64,000 nucleotides of DNA from Polyangiales bacterium (GTDB lineage Bacteria > Myxococcota_A > Polyangia > Polyangiales > Ga0077539), in the NCBI GenBank assembly GCA_044229975.1, contig JBGARZ010000026.1, positions 1 to 64,000 on the forward strand, written 5' to 3'. The stretch's first letter is position 1, and each line of letters begins with the position of its first letter. Of the stretch, positions 39,094-49,120 are shown in pieces. Below the pieces are notes generated by a model that was not told the DNA's origin, did not search any database, and saw only the letters and a program-made list of their open reading frames with translations. The position numbers were made by a program, and so were the translations under genes.

Positions 39094-40101
39094 ATGAACC
39101 GGTATTCGACCCTTCTTCTCTCTGGCCTTCTCGCCGGCTCCATCGGCGCCTGCAGCAGCGACCCGGCCGTCCCCACCGACGCCGGCAACCCTGCCGGTGA
39201 CACCGGCGTCACGGGCGACGGCGGCGCCTGCACCCCCAACACCATCGCCATGCCGGCGGCGAGCACCACCGGCTGCACGGCCCCGACGGTCGACGGCGGC
39301 GCGGTGCCCTTCTACCAGTGCGGCAGCGAAAACCTCTGTCCCCCCGGCCGCTTCACCAACCCCGCGATGGCCCCGGGCTTCCGCCTCACGTACATCAAGA
39401 TCGTCGCGCCCGAGGCGCTCGCCAGCATGGCGATTCTCTCGGTCATCAACCCGACGCTCGCGCGCGGCTCCTTCCTCTGGGGCCTCAAGCTCGACCTCGC
39501 GTCCAACACCTTCCGCACCGGCGGCCTCAACCCGATGTTCACCCGCGGCACGCGGGGCGTCGGCCTGATGGACGGCACCTACTCCTTCTTCAACAACAAC
39601 GGCCCTGGCGCCGAGCCCGCCCGCTACAACCCCATCATGGGCGCCGTCACGGTGACCGGCGACCGCGCCAGCACGGCGATGGTGACCACCACGGTCAACA
39701 TCCCGATCTTCAGCGACGAGGCCGGCACCATGCTGCTGACCCAGCTCCCCATGGACAACGCGCGCATCAGCAACGTGCACCTCACGGCCGACCGCGGCTG
39801 CATCGGCGGCGGCATCCCCTCGGGCGGTCGCTACACCGAGACCACCAGCCGCTGGCTCACCGAAGACAGCTGCGACAACCCCTACGGCACCGTCGACGCG
39901 GACATCACGGTCGAAAACGCGAAGACCGTGAGCGTCACCATCGGCGGCAGCCCGACGCCCCTCTGCAACATCATCTCGGGCGCCAACTGCATGACCGACC
40001 CGCAGTCGGGCTGGCCGCGCCAGCCCAACGCGACGGTCAACGGCATGCCCGCGTACCACCTGCGCGCGAACTTCGCCGCCATCTCCGCCAACATCCAGTG
40101 A
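39094..40101 (+). CDS. Lipoprotein, unknown function
   Basis: GGAGG RBS; lipobox IGAC; strong host-like codon bias. Confidence 0.85.
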   Translation: MNRYSTLLLSGLLAGSIGACSSDPAVPTDAGNPAGDTGVTGDGGACTPNTIAMPAASTTGCTAPTVDGGAVPFYQCGSENLCPPGRFTNPAMAPGFRLTYIKIVAPEALASMAILSVINPTLARGSFLWGLKLDLASNTFRTGGLNPMFTRGTRGVGLMDGTYSFFNNNGPGAEPARYNPIMGAVTVTGDRASTAMVTTTVNIPIFSDEAGTMLLTQLPMDNARISNVHLTADRGCIGGGIPSGGRYTETTSRWLTEDSCDNPYGTVDADITVENAKTVSVTIGGSPTPLCNIISGANCMTDPQSGWPRQPNATVNGMPAYHLRANFAAISANIQ

Positions 40102-40318: not shown

Positions 40319-43300
40319 ATGTGGTCGACGCTGCACAAGGTGTACTGGATGCTCGCCGTGATCCTGATTTCAGGGTGCGGCGGCGGTGGTTGTTCGGGCT
40401 GTGCGGGCGGGGCCATCGCGCCGATCCCGGGCGGCTACCCCCTCGCGCCTGAGACGCGCATCCCGCGCGCCGCGCAGATCCGTTTGACGGAGGGCGGCCT
40501 CAACCGCATCGAGGCCGTCGCGCCGAGCCTGCTCGGCGGGCTTGTCGGCTCGGGCATCCCGGTGCCCACCATCTCGCAGAACCTCTCCGTCGGCCGCGCC
40601 ATCGTGTGCCCGTCGGGCAGCTGCCCCATCCGCATCACGCTGCCCGCCACCAACGCGCTCGACCTCGGCTTCGCCGAGCCCAACGCCATTGGTGTTCGGG
40701 CACGCGTCGAGATCAACGGCGACATCCCCATCCGCGCCTGCGTCGGCTCGTGCAACGACCGCTGCGGCGGAACCTTCTGCGGCACCATCGCGTCGCCCAC
40801 GCTCAACATCAACACGGCGCGCGGCGGGCACCCGTACATCGGCCTGTCGACGCGGGCGACCATCCGCCGCGACACGCACGCGCAGCGGCTCAACTACCAC
40901 CGCGCCGACATCGTCTCCCCGACGGGCTCGGGCGACGCCGTGCAGGAGACGCCCGGCGAGGGCATCGAAAACGAAGACATCTCCTGCAACGACAGCTGGG
41001 TCTGCGGGATCATCAACCTCCTCCGCGGCACCATCGTCGGCCTCGTGCGCGACCAGATCAGCGGCGCGCTCGGCCCCATCGCCGACGCGCTCGCGATGAG
41101 CGACACCAACCCGCCGGGCTGCCCGACGGGTACCACCGCCCGCAGCGGCTCGTGCGTGTACCCCGACAACACCAACGTGCCGACGCTGCTCGGCACCGAC
41201 GGCGCGGGCAACTTCGGCGCCCTCTTCGCGTCGCTCTCGCCGGGCGTGCGCGCCAACGTCGCCTACACCCTCGCGGCGGGTGATCCCACCGCGGACTCGC
41301 AGGTCATCAACGGCGGCATGTCCATCAACATGTTCGGCGCGATGCAGTCGGCGGGTCACAACGCCTGCGTGCCGCGCCTCCCCGCGCCGGCCATCCCGAC
41401 CATCCCCGAGTACATGGCCCTGCGCGGCAACGTGGTGCCCGGCACCATGACCCCCATCGACCTCGGCATCGGCATCGCGGAGGAGTTCCTCAACTACTCG
41501 GCGTTCCAGCTGTGGGACGCGGGCACGCTCTGCCTCGGCGTCGGCACCAACCTCAGCCAGCAGATCTCGGCGGGCACCTTCGCCATCCTCCCGGCGCTCT
41601 CCTCGATGCGCCAGATCCTCTTCCCCGCCACCACCGGTCCGGTGGCCATCGTACTGCGCCCGCAGCAGCCCCCGGCCGTCCGCATCGGCCGCGGCACCAA
41701 CGTCGACACCGACCCGCTGCTCGGCATCCGCCTGCCGCGCCTCGCGCTCGACTTCTACGCCTGGAGCGAGGAGCGCTACGTGCGCTTCATGACCCTGACC
41801 ACCGACGCCGTCGTCGGCGTCAACCTCGAAGCCGACGCGGGCGGTCTGCTGCCGCGCCTCGGGCAGCTCCGCACCGAGAACATCACGGTCTCCAACAACA
41901 CGCTGCTCTCCAACAACCCGGCCCTCATCGGCACCTCGCTGTCGGCCATCCTGGGCCCGGCGCTCGGCATGCTGGGCGGCAGCTTGAGCCCCATCGCGAT
42001 CCCGGGCTTCGACGTCCCGGGCAGCGGCGGCTCCACCCTCGGCCGCGTGGCCATCAACATCCCCGCTGGCGGCGTGCAGGGCGTGACCGAGGGCAGCAAC
42101 CGCTTCCTCGGACTCTTCGCGGGCATCGCGTTCACCCCGGCGGGCTCGCGGCCCAGCACCGCGACCCTCGACACCATCGCGACCCTCGACGCCGTGCGCG
42201 TCGAGCCGGCGTTCTTCCGCTCGGCGGCGGGCTTCACGCAGGAGAACCTCCCCCACGTGGCCTTCCACGTGAGCTCGCCCAACGACCTCGGCCACCCGGT
42301 CGAGTACTCGTGGCGCATCGACCGCCAGACCTGGTCGAGCTTCAGCACCGAGACCCAGTACGACATCCAGGACTTCGCCTTCGCGGGCCCCGGTCGTCAC
42401 ACCATCGCGGTGCGCGCGCGCATCGCGGGTGAGCCCAGCACGGCCGACAGCGAGCCGGCGCAGTTCACCTTCATCATCGACCCCGTCGCGCCGGAGCTCT
42501 CCGCGCACCTCGACCAGGGCGCCGTCATCGCCGAGGCGACCGACAACCAGAACACCGCGCTGGAGTATTCGTTCCAGTTCGACAACGGCCCCGCCTCGGA
42601 GTGGGGCGCGTCGGATCGCGCGGACGTCCCCGAGGGCGCGACCCGCATCGTGGTGCGCGTCCGCGACGCCTCGGGCAACGTCACCGAGCGCATCATCAAC
42701 CGCCAGTCCCTCATCCGCGGCGGCGCCACCACCGACTCCGGGAGCGGCGGCTGCGGCTGCCGCGTGGCGGGCGCCTCCAGCAACAGCAGCGGTCGCGGAT
42801 CGGCGGGCCTGCTCGGGCTCTTCGCCGCGGGCGTGGTGATCGCGGCGCGTCGTCGTCGCCGGGCCAGCGCCCGCGTCGCGGCGGCGCTCGTCGCCGCCAC
42901 CGGCGCCGTCGCCGTCGGTTGCGCGGACACCAACACCGCCACCAACGCCGACGGCGGCGACGGCGGCGGCGTCGTAGGCGACAACGGCATGGTCGACCCG
43001 ATGGACGGCGGCGCCACCACCTGCGAGTCGGGGCAGAACCTCTGCGCGTCGTCGGGCATGTGCACGACCCCGCCCGCGTGCCCCGAGTGCATGCCGGGCT
43101 TCGGGCCGATGGGCGCGCCGACCTTCACGGCCGCGACCTGCGCGTACGACACCTCCGCGTGCAGTTGCGTGCGGCTGCCCCCGCTGCCCCCCGGCGCGGT
43201 GGGCTCTCACCTGCACATGGCCGCCGCGGCCGATGGTGCCATCTGGATGTCCGCGTACTCGCCGGGCGAGCCGACGGACGTCGCCCGCTACGGAGACCTC

Positions 43301-44527
43301 GTGGTCGGCCGCTGGGCGCAGGAGACGAGCTCGGTGGCGTGGACCCACGTCGACGGCGTTCCGGCGACGGGGATGGTGACGGGCGACCCGATGGGCTGGC
43401 GCAACGGCGTCAGCACGCCGGGCGACGACGTCGGGCGCTTCAACAGCATCGCCCTCAACGCCGCCAACCAGCCGCGGGTCGCGTACTGGGACACCACCAA
43501 CGACAAGCTGAAGTTCGCGGCCTTCGATGGCACCGCGTGGTCGGCGCACACCGTCGACGCGCAGGGCTCCAACGGCCGCTACGCCTCGCTCGCGCTGCTC
43601 GCCGACGGCACGCCGCTCGTCGCGTACCGCGCGGTGGCCGTGTCCGCCGACGGCCAGGTGCGGTCGGTGGTGCGCGTCGCTCGCGGCAACAGCGCGACGC
43701 CCGCCCGCGCCACCGACTGGACCATCTCCGACGCCGTGACGCTCCCCAGCCGATGCCGCGCTACCGATTGCGCGACGGGTCAGTCGTGCGTGGAGAGCAC
43801 GGGCCGCTGCGCCCCCGCGGGCACCTGCGCCGCCACCTGCGGCTCGGGTCAGGCGTGCGTGGGCACCACCTGCCAGGACATCATCGAGCGCACCTTCGTC
43901 GAAGACCTGCCCCCCGGCGCGCTCTTCATCAACCTGCTCATCGACGGCATGGGCCGTCCGGCGCTGGTGTTCTACAACCGCGACCGCGGCAACCTGATGT
44001 TCGCGCAGGGCAACGCGATGGGGATGTTTGCGGCGCCGGTGATCCTCGACGGCGAAGGCGCGATGGCGCGCGACACCGGCGACCGGGGCATCTCGGCGAC
44101 CGCGACGGTGGAGGGTGCCAACACCATCCACGTGGCCTACGTCGACGGCTGGGAGGAGCGGCTGATGTACCTCCGCGTCGTCAACGGAGCGCCCATGGGC
44201 GCGCCCGCGGTGGTCGACGACGGCTCTGGCGTCGGGACGACCATGAGCTTCGAAGACGGTCGGCACATCGTGGGTGACGGCGCCTCGGTGATCGTCGGCA
44301 CCGGCGGTCTTCGCATCGCCTACCAGGACGCCACCGTCGGAACGCTCCGTCTCGCGTCCCTCACGGGCTCGGGGATGGCCGCCACGTGGACGCGCTCGGT
44401 GGTCGACTCGATGAACCACACGGGCTATTGGGCCTCGACCTCGCGCGGCTTCATCGGAACCTACTGGCGCGACCTGTCCGACTCGTCGATGCGGCGCTGG
44501 GGCGTGCGGGTCTTCCCGCTGCCCTGA
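40319..44527 (+). CDS. Large (1402 aa) lipoprotein with an internal MYXO-CTERM-like signal and a second lipobox; C-half beta-propeller-like with Cys-rich inserts
   Basis: N-terminal lipobox ISGC; GGGCGC-linker-TM-RRRRR at aa ~809-848; AALVAATGAVAVGC at aa ~855-868; repeated S.AL...G.P.VAY blades. Confidence 0.88.
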   Translation: MWSTLHKVYWMLAVILISGCGGGGCSGCAGGAIAPIPGGYPLAPETRIPRAAQIRLTEGGLNRIEAVAPSLLGGLVGSGIPVPTISQNLSVGRAIVCPSGSCPIRITLPATNALDLGFAEPNAIGVRARVEINGDIPIRACVGSCNDRCGGTFCGTIASPTLNINTARGGHPYIGLSTRATIRRDTHAQRLNYHRADIVSPTGSGDAVQETPGEGIENEDISCNDSWVCGIINLLRGTIVGLVRDQISGALGPIADALAMSDTNPPGCPTGTTARSGSCVYPDNTNVPTLLGTDGAGNFGALFASLSPGVRANVAYTLAAGDPTADSQVINGGMSINMFGAMQSAGHNACVPRLPAPAIPTIPEYMALRGNVVPGTMTPIDLGIGIAEEFLNYSAFQLWDAGTLCLGVGTNLSQQISAGTFAILPALSSMRQILFPATTGPVAIVLRPQQPPAVRIGRGTNVDTDPLLGIRLPRLALDFYAWSEERYVRFMTLTTDAVVGVNLEADAGGLLPRLGQLRTENITVSNNTLLSNNPALIGTSLSAILGPALGMLGGSLSPIAIPGFDVPGSGGSTLGRVAINIPAGGVQGVTEGSNRFLGLFAGIAFTPAGSRPSTATLDTIATLDAVRVEPAFFRSAAGFTQENLPHVAFHVSSPNDLGHPVEYSWRIDRQTWSSFSTETQYDIQDFAFAGPGRHTIAVRARIAGEPSTADSEPAQFTFIIDPVAPELSAHLDQGAVIAEATDNQNTALEYSFQFDNGPASEWGASDRADVPEGATRIVVRVRDASGNVTERIINRQSLIRGGATTDSGSGGCGCRVAGASSNSSGRGSAGLLGLFAAGVVIAARRRRRASARVAAALVAATGAVAVGCADTNTATNADGGDGGGVVGDNGMVDPMDGGATTCESGQNLCASSGMCTTPPACPECMPGFGPMGAPTFTAATCAYDTSACSCVRLPPLPPGAVGSHLHMAAAADGAIWMSAYSPGEPTDVARYGDLVVGRWAQETSSVAWTHVDGVPATGMVTGDPMGWRNGVSTPGDDVGRFNSIALNAANQPRVAYWDTTNDKLKFAAFDGTAWSAHTVDAQGSNGRYASLALLADGTPLVAYRAVAVSADGQVRSVVRVARGNSATPARATDWTISDAVTLPSRCRATDCATGQSCVESTGRCAPAGTCAATCGSGQACVGTTCQDIIERTFVEDLPPGALFINLLIDGMGRPALVFYNRDRGNLMFAQGNAMGMFAAPVILDGEGAMARDTGDRGISATATVEGANTIHVAYVDGWEERLMYLRVVNGAPMGAPAVVDDGSGVGTTMSFEDGRHIVGDGASVIVGTGGLRIAYQDATVGTLRLASLTGSGMAATWTRSVVDSMNHTGYWASTSRGFIGTYWRDLSDSSMRRWGVRVFPLP

Positions 44528-44601: not shown

Positions 44602-44689
44602 GTCGGCGTGGCGGAATGGCATACGCAGGTGGCTTAAAACCACCGGGGACGACAGTCTCGTGCGGGTTCGACCCCCGCCGCCGATACCA
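44602..44689 (+). tRNA. tRNA-Leu (anticodon UAA)
   Basis: Acceptor GTCGGCG/CGCCGAT, anticodon arm GGTGG-CT-TAA-AA-CCACC, long variable arm, GCGGG-TTCGACC-CCCGC T-arm, A discriminator, encoded CCA. Confidence 0.96.
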
Positions 44690-44741: not shown

Positions 44742-44996
44742 TCAGCTCGCGAGGGCGGTGAGCTTCTCTTCGACGAAGCGATGCACGCTGGTGAGCGTGG
44801 AGATGTTCTTGAACTCGCTCTCGGCGATCTTGAGGTGATAGCGCCGCTCGATGTCCGAGATGATCTCGATGGCCTGCATCGAGTCGACGCCGAGCTCGCG
44901 CAGCGGAACGTCGTCGCCGATGGCGTCGGCGTCCTTCTCGATGACCTCGGCGATGAGGGCGCGGAGGTCTTCCTTCAAGCTGACCGGGGTGGACAT
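44742..44996 (-). CDS. Acyl carrier protein
   Basis: ELGVDSMQAIEI; acidic 84-aa helical protein; ATG 44996 with GGAG RBS. Confidence 0.92.
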   Translation of the reverse strand: MSTPVSLKEDLRALIAEVIEKDADAIGDDVPLRELGVDSMQAIEIISDIERRYHLKIAESEFKNISTLTSVHRFVEEKLTALAS

Positions 44997-45010
44997 GGCG
45001 GCTGCTCCGT

Positions 45011-45256
45011 TCACGCGTTGGTGCGCTTCTGAACCAGGTCGACGAGCTGCGCGACGGTGGAGATGCCCACGAGCTGGTCGTCCGGAATCTGGATCTTGAA
45101 CTCGCGCTCCATCTCACCAACGATCTCGAGCATCCCAAGGGAGTCGATGCCGAGGTCGCTGATCGCCGTCTTGTCGTTGGGCAGTGGGATGTCCTTCTCG
45201 GCGACCTTGCTGGCGATCTCGCGGAAGGTGGTGAGCAACTGGTCTCGTGCGATCAT
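45011..45256 (-). CDS. Acyl carrier protein
   Basis: DLGIDSLGMLEIV..MEREF.I.IPDD; start 45256 or 45274. Confidence 0.92.
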   Translation of the reverse strand: MIARDQLLTTFREIASKVAEKDIPLPNDKTAISDLGIDSLGMLEIVGEMEREFKIQIPDDQLVGISTVAQLVDLVQKRTNA

Positions 45257-45485
45257 CGGGGCGACGCGCTCCATGGGGTGGTCATTGGGTGAGCGGCGAA
45301 GAGGCGCGCTCCAGGCGAGCGGTTCATCGCAGCGATCGTGCCTGCCTGTCAAGGCGCGCAACCCCCGAGAACACAAGCGTTTCGTGCACGTCTGAAGTGC
45401 GTAGTCGGCGTGGCGGTGGGCACCCCTTTTCGCGCCCCGCCCACGGCTTGCTGGCGTCGCGGCGCATCGGCTATAGCCCGCGCCG

Positions 45486-46733
45486 ATGGCACCTCGGGTC
45501 CTCATCACCGGGATGGGCGTGGTCAGCTCGATCGGGCTGGGCCGCGAGGCGTTCTGGCGTTCGCTCTCCCGTGGCGTGAGCGGCACCTCGCCCATCGCCT
45601 CCTTCGACACGTCGCGCCTCGGCCGCTCGCTCGCCGCCGAGGTGCAGGGCTTCCGTCCCACGGATCACCTCTCGGCCGTCGAGGCGACGCGCGCCGGTCG
45701 CTGCGCCGCCTTCGCGATGGCCGCCGCTCGCATGGCCGTGCGCGACGCGGGCCTCGGCGACGCTGCGCTCCGCACCGAGCGCGCCAGCGTCGTGCTCGGA
45801 ACCACCATGGGCGAGGCCGACGTCTGCGGGCTCCTCGACGCGCGGTGGATCCACGACGGCGCCGACGCGATGTCGGCGCGGGTGATTCCGAAGTACGCGC
45901 CGTACCTGCTCGCGATGGAGACGGCGCGCGCGCTCGGCTGTCGCGGCACGGTGCTCACGCTGCCGGCGGCATGCGCAGCGGGCAACTACGCCATCGGGTA
46001 CGCGAGCGATCTCATCCGCGCGGGCCGCGCCGACGTGGTCATCACGGGCGCCTCGGAGATGCTGCAAGAACTTCAGTTCGCGGGCTTCGTCCGGCTGGGC
46101 GCGGTCGCCCCGGAGCGCTGCCAGCCCTTCGACCTCGAACGCCAGGGTCTCATCGTCGGCGAAGGCGCCGGGGTGCTGGTGCTGGAGTCCGAGGCCCACG
46201 CGGTGCGCCGCGGCGCGACGGCGCTCGCCGAGGTCGGCGGCTACGGCCTCGCGTGCGACGCCTTCCACATCACGCGACCCGAACCCTCCGGCGCGGGGAT
46301 CATCCACGCCATCCGCGAGTCCATCCGTCGCTCGGGGCTGACGGCGACGGACGTGGACTTCATCAACGCCCACGGCACGGCGACCAAGGCCAACGACGTG
46401 GTGGAGTCGACGGCGGTGCGTGAAGTGTTTGGCGGGCGAGCGGTTCCGCTCACGTCGGTGAAGAGCCTCATCGGGCACTGCATGGGCGCGGCGAGCGCCA
46501 TCGAGGCGGTGAGCTGCGTCGAGACCATCCTCACGGGCGTCTATCCACCGACCGTGGGCTACACGACGCCCGACCCGGAGTGCGACGTGGCCGTGGTCGC
46601 CAACGAGGCGGGACGTGGGCGCGCCGACGTGGTGCTCAACCATTCTCTGGCCTTCGGTGGCTACGACGCGGTGGTGCTCTTCGCGAAGCCCGATCGCCTG
46701 CCGCCGCCCGACGCGCGTGAGGTGTCGGCGTGA
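45486..46733 (+). CDS. Beta-ketoacyl-ACP synthase (FabF-like, catalytic)
   Basis: AACAAGN (Cys), INAHGTAT.AND, KSLIGHCMGAA, LAFGG. Confidence 0.93.
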   Translation: MAPRVLITGMGVVSSIGLGREAFWRSLSRGVSGTSPIASFDTSRLGRSLAAEVQGFRPTDHLSAVEATRAGRCAAFAMAAARMAVRDAGLGDAALRTERASVVLGTTMGEADVCGLLDARWIHDGADAMSARVIPKYAPYLLAMETARALGCRGTVLTLPAACAAGNYAIGYASDLIRAGRADVVITGASEMLQELQFAGFVRLGAVAPERCQPFDLERQGLIVGEGAGVLVLESEAHAVRRGATALAEVGGYGLACDAFHITRPEPSGAGIIHAIRESIRRSGLTATDVDFINAHGTATKANDVVESTAVREVFGGRAVPLTSVKSLIGHCMGAASAIEAVSCVETILTGVYPPTVGYTTPDPECDVAVVANEAGRGRADVVLNHSLAFGGYDAVVLFAKPDRLPPPDAREVSA

Positions 46734-47884
46734 CCCCGCTCGCCCTCACCGGCTTCGGCGTCGCCTCGCCCCTCGGCCTCGGCTGGGATGCCTTTCGCGC
46801 GAGCCTCGCGGCCCCGCCGGGCGGCGCGTTTACGACGACCCCGACGAGCTTCACGCACCCGCCGCACCCGGCCCTGCGCCTCGCGGAGATCGCCAACTTC
46901 GACCCGCGCCCCATCGTCGGCGACAAGGGTCTGCGCAACAACGATCGGCTCACCCGCCTGCTCCTCGTGGCGGCGCGGCTCGGCCTCGACCACGCGGGCG
47001 TGAAGCGCGAAGCGGCCTTCATCGCGCTCGGCCCCACGGAGGTCGGCGTGTGCGCGTCGACGGCGTACGGGAGCCTGGAGGCCATCCACGAGCTCGACAC
47101 GGTCTCGCGGCTCGAAGACCCGCGGTACATCAACCCGGCGCGCTTCCCCAACACGGTCATCAACAGCTCCGTCGGGTACGTGAGCATCTGGGAAGACCTG
47201 CGCGCCCTCAACGCGACCATCACCAACGGCCCCACCGGGGGCCTCGACGCCTTCGACGCCGCGTCGCTCTGGCTCGCCGCGGGGCGCGCGAAGGCCGTGC
47301 TCACGGGTGGCGCCGAGGCGTCGTCCGAGGGGCTGTGGCACGCGCTTCGACGACTCGGCGTGCTCGACGAGACGCCCGCGACCTGGGCGCCCGGCGACCC
47401 CGCCTCGCGAGGGCTGCGGCTCGGTGAGGGCGCGTGTCTGATGGTGCTCGAAGAGACCGCTGCGGCGAGGGCGCGAGGCGCGACGGTCCACGCGGAGGTC
47501 GTCGGGTACGGCGCGGCGTTTGAGCCGACGGACGACAGCGCGCCGATGGTTCATGTGAGCGGCGAGGCGCTGGCGCGTGCGGTGCGGATGGCGCTCGCGG
47601 ACGCAGGCATCGAGCGCTCGCGGGTGGCGATGGCAGTGAGCGGACTCGGCGGGCTACCGGCCCTTGATGGGCCCGAGCGCGCTGCGATCGCCGCGGTGCT
47701 GGACGGCGTCGAGATCAAGACGCCGAAGTCGTGGTGCGGTGAGACGCTCGGCGCGGCGGGGGCCTTCGGGGTCGCCGCGGCGAGCGCATGGTTGGCGGAC
47801 CGGAGCGCGGGCGACTGCGCGGTAGTGACATCCGTCGGGTTCTACGGAAACGCGTCGGCGCTGGTGGTTCGACGTGCGGAGTGA
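46730..47884 (+). CDS. Non-catalytic ketosynthase homolog (chain-length-factor-like)
   Basis: KS fold motifs (P..FPNTV.N, GEGA...VLE, GETLGA.G), but the Cys position reads NGPTGG and both His positions are replaced; GTGA coupling to the KS. Confidence 0.85.
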   Translation: MTPLALTGFGVASPLGLGWDAFRASLAAPPGGAFTTTPTSFTHPPHPALRLAEIANFDPRPIVGDKGLRNNDRLTRLLLVAARLGLDHAGVKREAAFIALGPTEVGVCASTAYGSLEAIHELDTVSRLEDPRYINPARFPNTVINSSVGYVSIWEDLRALNATITNGPTGGLDAFDAASLWLAAGRAKAVLTGGAEASSEGLWHALRRLGVLDETPATWAPGDPASRGLRLGEGACLMVLEETAAARARGATVHAEVVGYGAAFEPTDDSAPMVHVSGEALARAVRMALADAGIERSRVAMAVSGLGGLPALDGPERAAIAAVLDGVEIKTPKSWCGETLGAAGAFGVAAASAWLADRSAGDCAVVTSVGFYGNASALVVRRAE

Positions 47885-47887
47885 GCG

Positions 47888-49120
47888 ATGAGCTGGATCG
47901 ATGACAAGGCCCACGAGGGTCTGGCGAGGGTGCGCGAGGCGCGCGAGGCCGGGGTGTATCCGTTCTTCCGGGCCTTCGAGAGCGGGGGATTGCGGACGAC
48001 GGTCGAGGGTCACGCCTTCGTCAACTTCAGCTCCAACGACTACCTCGGGCTCACCAACCACCCGAAGGTGAAGGAGGCCGCCAAGCGCGCGGTGGACGTC
48101 TTCGCGTGTGGGCTGTCGAGCTCGCGCGTGCAGGCCACCACCACGGCCCACGTGGAGATCGAAGACCGCCTCGCGAAGTACTTTGGCTTCGAGAAGGCGC
48201 TCGTCACCACCACGGGCTACCAGGCAATGGTCGCGACCATCATGGCGCTCGCCGACCGCGACACGGCGCTCATCCTCGACAACCTGTCGCACGCCTGCAT
48301 CCTCGACGGGACGTTCCTCGCGGCGGGCACGCCGGGCCGTGCGCCCGAGGTGCGCTTCTTCAACCACAACAGCGCGCGCTCGCTGGAGCGGGTGCTCAAG
48401 TCGCGCGAGCGCCCCAACGCGCTGGTGCTGGTCGAGGGCATCTACTCGCTCGACGGCGACATGGGGAAGCTCGCCGAGATCATCGAGGTGTGCGACCGCC
48501 ACGGCGCCGTTCTCGTCGTCGACGACGCCCACGGCTCCGGGACGCTCGGCACCCACGGGCGCGGCATCCTCGAACACCTCGGCCTGGAGGGTCGCGCGCC
48601 CATCGTGGTGTCGACCTTCTCCAAGGTCTTCGGCGGCATCGGCGGCATCATCCTCGGCGGCACCGAGGTCATCGACCACATCAAGCACACCGCGCGCAGC
48701 TTCGTGTTCAGCGCGACGCTCCCGGTGCCCATCGTGGCGGCGGCGTCGACCATCCTCACCATGCTGGAGGAGGAGGGCCCCGCCCTGGTCGCGGAGCTCC
48801 ACGACAACGCGAAGTACATGCGGGCACAGCTCCTCGACCGCGGCTTCGACCTCGGCGCGAGCGATACGCACATCATGCCGGTGATGGTGCGCGACGAGCG
48901 CAAGGCGATGATGCTCCACCACCTGCTCTACGAGCGCGGCGTGTACCTCGTCCCCATCACGTACCCCGGCGTGAAGGTCGGCGAGGAGCGCCTGCGGGTC
49001 AACGTCACCCGCGGCCACACCCGCGCCGAGATGGCGCTCGCGCTGTCGTGCCTCGAAGAGCTGGGCGCCGCCTGCGAGATCCGCAAGCAGGACGCGCAGC
49101 CCGCAGCCCCCATCGCCTGA
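47888..49120 (+). CDS. PLP-dependent alpha-oxoamine synthase, serine palmitoyltransferase-like
   Basis: GVYPFFR, FSSNDYLGL, SHACILDG, EGIYSLDGD, DDAHG.G, TFSKVFG (PLP Lys). Confidence 0.88.
   Translation: MSWIDDKAHEGLARVREAREAGVYPFFRAFESGGLRTTVEGHAFVNFSSNDYLGLTNHPKVKEAAKRAVDVFACGLSSSRVQATTTAHVEIEDRLAKYFGFEKALVTTTGYQAMVATIMALADRDTALILDNLSHACILDGTFLAAGTPGRAPEVRFFNHNSARSLERVLKSRERPNALVLVEGIYSLDGDMGKLAEIIEVCDRHGAVLVVDDAHGSGTLGTHGRGILEHLGLEGRAPIVVSTFSKVFGGIGGIILGGTEVIDHIKHTARSFVFSATLPVPIVAAASTILTMLEEEGPALVAELHDNAKYMRAQLLDRGFDLGASDTHIMPVMVRDERKAMMLHHLLYERGVYLVPITYPGVKVGEERLRVNVTRGHTRAEMALALSCLEELGAACEIRKQDAQPAAPIA

Follow-up and report, generated by a model that had tools for sequence, protein, structure and literature searches.

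Sorting signals at the joint of a probable twice-cut lipoprotein precursor of the Myxococcota

Why does a single gene carry, in the middle of its reading frame, a surface-sorting tag that normally ends a protein, followed at once by a lipoprotein signal that normally begins one? The gene lies in the first 64,000 nucleotides of contig JBGARZ010000026.1 (assembly GCA_044229975.1) from a Polyangiales bacterium of the Ga0077539 lineage, a stretch referred to below as the window. It encodes a product of 1402 amino acids (aa), P0001, in an open reading frame (ORF) without internal stop codons, and the GC content at third codon positions is 0.84 to 1.00 for each 50-codon block, the junction included, a uniform codon bias. 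The part before the joint (N-half) is predicted to contain a BPI/LBP/CETP-like domain, and the part behind it (C-half) is predicted to form a beta-propeller. Sequence comparisons suggest that P0001 is one precursor with three sorting signals that would be cut twice into two lipid-anchored partners, a reading to which we assign a probability of about 0.6.

The initial annotation described an uninterrupted 1402-aa frame beginning with a lipobox, and this description stands: the N terminus carries ISG directly before Cys20, and a lipobox-like Cys is present in 140 of the 141 homologous N termini examined. The internal MYXO-CTERM tag had been given as starting with GGGCGC, which is right in the Cys motif and its position and wrong by one letter; the motif is SGGCGC (residues 809 to 814), followed by a helix (about residues 830 to 843) and RRRRR (residues 844 to 848). 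The proposed check against the MYXO-CTERM model came out positive, with TIGR03901 scoring residues 809 to 848 at 21.4 bits, above the curated cutoff of 20 (24.0 in the genome-wide scan). The genome contains 43 TIGR03901 matches, 41 of which are no more than 25 residues away from a stop codon; the P0001 tag, behind which come another 554 residues, is one of the two internal matches. RRRRR is followed by ASARVAAALVAATGAVAVG and then by Cys868 (codon 42920-42922), so the second signal (residues 849 to 868) is internal and not at the N terminus of a translation product. From Cys868 to the C-terminal end there are 535 aa, close to the further propeller-like domain of about 530 aa first estimated, and their model is a beta-propeller.

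Such a joint might be an assembly error or a one-off stop loss that united two genes, and sporadic read-through does exist for another tag gene of this genome (2 of 30 loci). However, a contig of a related strain (run X2) spans positions 42805-43500 across the joint with frame-neutral gaps only, and neither a stop nor a frameshift follows RRRRR. The comparison uses relatives' assembled contigs only; public runs contain less than 0.2 of the gene's words. A protein search returned 58 matches, 56 of which are family members (29 to 96% identity), and 55 of 57 aligned family rows continue through the joint, with one partial row and one (P0049) that stops at the tag. Because homologs in several classes are fused (167 ORFs) and the contig of the related strain stays in frame across it, the joint is not an artefact; the homolog survey rules out an assembly error at this site, and we give practically no weight to either accident.

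The survey covered 186 loci (L001 to L190 without three duplicates and a paralog from the same genome). Fused ORFs are present at 166 of them (167 ORFs), 8 loci are split at the joint, at 3 the C-half gene is unlinked, 7 are truncated by a contig end, and 2 are distant, so that fusion is the rule wherever the halves are adjacent (166/174). The helix and basic cluster were parsed in 166 of the 167 fused ORFs. At 165 of these 166 junctions a Cys precedes the helix (the tag Cys, absent from L124), and at 165 a second hydrophobic stretch ends in a small residue and a Cys; in the two ORFs missed by the parser, the lipobox is visible by eye. The whole series of tag Cys, helix, Arg or basic cluster, second helix, and lipobox is found at 165 of 166 parsed junctions and in 412 of 8088 control windows (5%). 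The residue at position -1 of the internal Cys (n=165) is G in 133, A in 27, S in 4, and N in 1, and a charged residue occurs in the last 10 positions before this Cys in only 3 of 165. A stricter lipoprotein pattern, of the PROSITE type, fits 140 of the 165 internal signals; the rate is 1.7% among shuffles and 3.3% among other Cys (161 of 4826). The internal Cys also ranks top in its own ORF in 150 of 165 by a matrix built from 140 family N-terminal signals, a test that is only partly independent, since training set and internal signals were chosen by a similar rule.

The loop from the first basic residue to the internal Cys ranges from 14 to 87 aa (median, 27), with a net charge of 0 to +13, and because length and charge drift in this way, it is the logic of the signal that is kept, not its sequence. 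The idea that the Arg cluster doubles as the n-region of the second signal thus holds for short-loop members, P0001 included, and not for all homologs. The shortest internal signals, with 14 residues from the first basic residue to the Cys, are short for a helix that is to stay in the membrane. A second, separate set, the best 150 representatives of clusters at 50%, consists of 115 fused forms with a lipobox-like Cys, 24 proteins that stop at the tag, and 11 partial or unparsed entries; every parsed fused propeller form has the lipobox-like Cys. The sorting hairpin is real, old, and strongly conserved, and because tag Cys and lipobox-like Cys are each kept at 165 of 166 junctions, both enzyme signals are under selection.

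Homologs occurring as two adjacent genes split at this junction, which the initial annotation had suggested looking for, were found at eight loci (L031, L032, L037, L040, L063, L068, L070, and L074). The first gene ends after the Arg cluster; a purine-rich stretch precedes the overlap of its stop codon with the new start (TGATG or GTGA), from which a short ordinary signal leads to the equivalent Cys in the second gene. The tag is therefore truly C-terminal in these homologs and the C-half signal truly N-terminal. A chosen subset of 50 rows was used for the tree of each half; in both trees the rows follow family labels and four changes are needed, and the outgroups, from other orders and classes, are fused. 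A single origin of the eight splits is rejected (approximately unbiased test, p 6e-67), and joining the two splits of family f17 is weakly rejected (p 0.04). For these reasons fusion is likely ancestral in this subfamily, with three or four later splits. In two genomes (G176 and G077) the halves lie at separate sites, and in a distant paralogous group, both fused and split forms occur. Family f36 (seven loci, L310 to L316) has a BPI-only lipoprotein gene without Ig domains and without the tag, which overlaps the propeller gene by ATGA or GTGA.

P0001 has no match in Pfam, PF01273 and PF02886 included, and none of 34 homologous halves exceeded a Pfam gathering score; PF02886 was found on 1 of 20 homologous N-halves, at 15 bits versus 23. 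With the N-half model (pLDDT 91.5), the top five Foldseek matches are all BPI/LBP/CETP structures (E 5e-17 to 3e-13) at about 11% identity, the best being BPI 1ewf (E 5e-17), and BPI is also the best match of a profile search of the PDB (E 0.0047). Like human BPI, LBP, and CETP (PDB 1ewf, 1bp1, 4m4d, and 2obd), the N-half is predicted to have the two-barrel TULIP fold; unlike them, it adds Ig-like domains, two predicted lipid anchors, and a predicted propeller partner. A published abstract states that bacteria have TULIP proteins, and our literature search for bacterial TULIP or BPI proteins in myxobacteria gave no paper. In the C-half model (pLDDT 92.9), a disordered tether and a Cys-rich module come first and a beta-propeller follows; the Gly/Asp/Thr-rich stretch behind Cys868 looks as a lipoprotein tether should. 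The nearest folds to the C-half are CylK (Z 32.2) and the Photorhabdus lectin PLL4 (Z 29.8); the likeness is at fold level only, with 8 to 14% identity, so these matches do not fix its function. No Asp-box pattern is present in P0001, a C-half profile gave no clear match among PDB sequences, and the leads of an ESM Atlas search with the C-half were all below 0.9.

The BPI domain and the propeller are also predicted to bind each other, with a score of 0.86 versus 0.00 for the best of three controls. The mark used for this score is reached by 116 of 157 solved pairs and 2 of 215 mismatched pairs, counts that hold roughly here, where our own alignments were used for the prediction. Halves of one gene tend to pass such a test through likeness to solved structures; PDB sequence searches gave remote relatives at most for either half. 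The runs share at least 94% of contacts, with a partner pLDDT of at least 85, and the predicted contact is centred on R486 and R489 (97-98% conserved) and on Q1336-T1339. Conservation of the BPI-side interface is 0.57 versus 0.40 elsewhere, and 0 of 5000 random sets were as high. The predicted binding would explain why the halves are kept in step by fusion or coupling.

From these findings a stepwise route can be proposed. By standard lipoprotein biology, the N-terminal signal would export the first half via Sec, and Cys20 would be lipidated. Given a positive-inside layout, the MYXO-CTERM helix would then halt transfer, with the Arg-rich loop remaining cytoplasmic, and export would be restarted for the second half by the hydrophobic stretch that follows. 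The tag Cys may be lipidated and the chain cut behind it by the myxosortase MrtC, as work on MrtX and TraA suggests, while Lgt would modify Cys868 and LspA would cut before it, a step for which we found no direct precedent. The products are predicted to contact each other by way of the propeller and the C-terminal barrel of the BPI-like domain and might stay together as a 1:1 complex, the single frame replacing the translational coupling of the split genomes in providing equal amounts at the same place. Judged by fold, binding or shuttling of lipid or lipopolysaccharide (LPS) in the envelope would be the likeliest role of the pair, with the propeller as a docking or glycan-binding partner. The genome encodes MrtC (220.7 versus a cutoff of 195), one LspA, and Lgt-family genes at five loci. 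Layout, conserved joint, natural splits, and enzyme genes give partial support to the polyprotein proposal of the initial annotation; the two cuts and the lipidation we infer.

Several observations weigh against two cuts. The strict lipoprotein pattern fails for 25 of the 165 internal signals, and the internal Cys lies within CxC in 91 of 165, where it could serve disulfides. The loci are best matches from related genomes and not independent draws, so the counts overstate the number of independent events. The propeller-side interface shows no extra conservation (0.45 versus 0.47 elsewhere). The helix upstream could hinder Lgt and LspA at an internal lipobox, and a search of mostly non-subscription literature found no paper on their action at such a site. 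As the BPI half of family f36 is tagless, tag processing is not needed everywhere for the pair. Finally, the predicted complex would fit an uncut chain equally well, and so would the topology. An intact inner-membrane protein with a two-helix hairpin, both domains on the non-cytoplasmic side, and the flanking Cys merely acylated or disulfide bonded would also agree with fusion at 166 of 174 loci with adjacent halves and with the CxC motifs flanking both helices. We nevertheless consider it clearly unlikely, given the small residue at -1 in 165 of 165 signals, the near absence of charge before the Cys (3/165), the very short second helices with a disordered tether behind the Cys, and the separate chains that the halves form in at least eight genomes.

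A single cut, by LspA or by MrtC, strikes us as rather unlikely. If LspA made it, the propeller lipoprotein would be freed, and the BPI half would stay fixed in the inner membrane through its helix and might span the periplasm, with the lipid of its N terminus in the outer membrane; alternatively, MrtC would free the BPI half, and the propeller would remain on the uncut hairpin. A BPI half anchored doubly, at Cys20 and at the tag, could be used by a membrane-bridging lipid carrier, the tag of P0001 is barely over the cutoff, and homolog L124 has no tag Cys. However, the conservation of both the tag Cys and the lipobox-like Cys (165/166 each) speaks for two working sites, as does the ordinary C-terminal tag of the split genomes. 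The second protein might instead come from an internal translation start, which would make internal action of Lgt and LspA unnecessary. P0001 has an in-frame GTG GTG directly before the Arg run, and an in-frame start codon occurs somewhere in 117 of 165 junctions, yet this rate equals that of control windows (0.73), and a start with a strong Shine-Dalgarno sequence is present in 3 of 165 versus 2.3% of controls. A conserved internal start was rejected on this ground, and we regard this explanation as very improbable. Two cuts of one precursor thus remain our preferred reading.

Membrane polyproteins with an internal signal have a counterpart in the fbcH cytochrome b-c1 precursor of Bradyrhizobium japonicum, which our literature search did not return; it is of the signal peptidase I type, belongs to a respiratory complex, and has no sorting tag or lipid anchor. 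Internal MYXO-CTERM tags are called rare in the passages available from Guo, Haft, and Wall 2025 (PMC11980579). Their MXAN_5598 of Myxococcus xanthus, a two-gene fusion, likewise has its MYXO-CTERM in mid-chain, and processing and anchoring of its front part were proposed. Its back part is an outer-membrane barrel with an OmpA domain, for which those passages give no second signal or lipobox; here, in contrast, a lipoprotein signal follows the tag, the layout is kept in several classes, and the domains are BPI-like and a propeller. HVO_0405 of Haloferax volcanii, an archaeosortase substrate cut at a central site, also has a normally C-terminal tripartite tag placed in mid-chain (PMC7157517), but it is a strain-specific recent archaeal fusion, and the passages available mention no second lipoprotein signal. 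The tag anatomy resembles that of TraA/TraB and of ordinary MYXO-CTERM proteins processed by MrtX/MrtC, and there, too, as in the split homologs of P0001, the tagged gene overlaps an envelope gene that comes next (PMC11980579); unlike P0001, those are two genes with the tag at a true end. The main text of the Haft bioRxiv preprint does not mention an internal tag, fusion, or lipobox, and a search of mostly non-subscription literature for a myxobacterial polyprotein gave nothing relevant.

The second internal MYXO-CTERM of the same genome is in a reverse-strand gene of a heme-uptake locus with HmuY and HemS (L193:5667-9779, equal to G000:C32, with the tag at 1115580-1115669). Behind this tag come a stretch of the signal peptidase I type and then a TonB-dependent receptor. 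Homologs read through at only 2 of 30 loci (L193 itself and L229, which continues into an HmuY-like lipoprotein), so this fusion may be recent or an assembly error, and it was downgraded as strong support for the two-cut precursor; at L213 the receptor gene is coupled by an ATGA overlap and not fused. The case illustrates how tag fusions can arise.

Table 1. Features of the P0001 gene and its flanks (positions in the window)
Feature	Position	Strand	Basis
Whole gene, 1402-aa precursor (P0001)	40319..44527	+	ORF; full-length homologs
N-terminal lipoprotein signal, lipobox ISG before C20	40319..40378	+	Sequence
Predicted BPI/LBP/CETP-like (double TULIP) domain, about residues 48-607	40460..42139	+	Model, Foldseek, profile
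Two predicted Ig/FN3-like beta-sandwich domains, about residues 620-795	42176..42703	+	Model secondary structure; weaker FN3/Ig matches
Internal MYXO-CTERM: SGGCGC (Cys812, Cys814), linker, membrane helix, RRRRR	42743..42862	+	TIGR03901
Second, internal lipoprotein signal: hydrophobic stretch and lipobox AVG before C868	42863..42922	+	Sequence; homologs
Low-confidence Gly/Asp/Thr-rich stretch after Cys868	42923..43006	+	pLDDT <50, C-half model residues 1-18 and 21-28
Cys-rich module and predicted beta-propeller with Cys-rich insertion	43007..44524	+	Model pLDDT 92.9
Upstream lipoprotein-like gene, no known family, syntenic	39094..40101	+	Adjoins gene in 21/80 loci
tRNA-Leu(TAA), kept downstream neighbour	44602..44689	+	Present in 31/80 loci

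Of 201 genomes of the order, 138 have a match to the C-half. This count takes in weak matches as well as an unpublished genome (G123) that is not the sole basis of any claim; strong matches are mostly one per genome, in frames of about 1400 aa. Among 251 genomes drawn phylum-wide, the N-half matched 117 and the C-half profile 91 at E 1e-40, and several families of the phylum gave no match among the genomes searched. A PfkB kinase gene is a conserved neighbour (36/80 loci). The upstream lipoprotein-like gene has no Pfam or NCBIfam match and is a possible third partner. Downstream of the tRNA gene, positions 44743-49120 hold two acyl carrier protein genes, two FabF-like ketosynthase genes, and a serine-palmitoyltransferase/BioF-like gene; this cluster is syntenic in close relatives and possibly makes a special lipid beside a predicted lipid-binding gene. 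A promoter and terminator scan gave nothing above shuffles.

Among the homologous loci, 12 from other classes (L138, L152, L157, L158, L161, L163, L166, L167, L173, L178, L180, and L186) encode a further, related propeller immediately behind the fused gene, with a lipoprotein-type signal wherever the start of this second gene is visible, and L165 has a tandem pair of complete fused copies. In L038, L039, L058, L071, and L128, the N-half frame breaks away from the joint, probably through assembly errors. The paralog excluded from the survey (L190, reverse strand, in the G000:C23:369893-371563 region) has an N-half only, with BPI-like and Ig domains and an ordinary C-terminal MYXO-CTERM; it has no adjoining propeller gene, groups with P0049, and could compete for the single propeller partner. 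One of the five Lgt paralogs could serve MYXO-CTERM proteins or internal lipoboxes. The known route to the cell surface is that of the tagged half only. Type II secretion genes, gspD and a gspE-like gene, lie past the window end, about 21 kb from the P0001 gene (G000:C35:65681-69662); GspD is above its cutoff, and the best GspE-like protein scores 616 versus a cutoff of 630.

A wider reading is tentative, and as a whole we think it possible while leaning against it: an ancient Myxococcota polyprotein from which myxosortase and Lgt/LspA make a BPI-like lipid carrier with two lipid anchors, together with its propeller partner; the two might move or capture lipid or LPS between membranes (inner to outer, cell to cell, or prey to predator), with the tag-plus-signal hairpin as a reusable cassette by which coupled envelope genes could fuse and split losslessly. 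If P0001 is indeed cut twice, Lgt and LspA are able to work on a signal that lies 850 residues from the start of a chain, and envelope polyproteins processed by signal peptidases would be a stable bacterial design and not accidents. The large size shifts would make the MrtC and LspA cuts easily visible, providing a ready test system, and the protein would bear on which enzyme lipidates MYXO-CTERM. The finding points to a mostly single-copy, predicted complex of a BPI-like protein and a propeller that has been annotated as one hypothetical protein.

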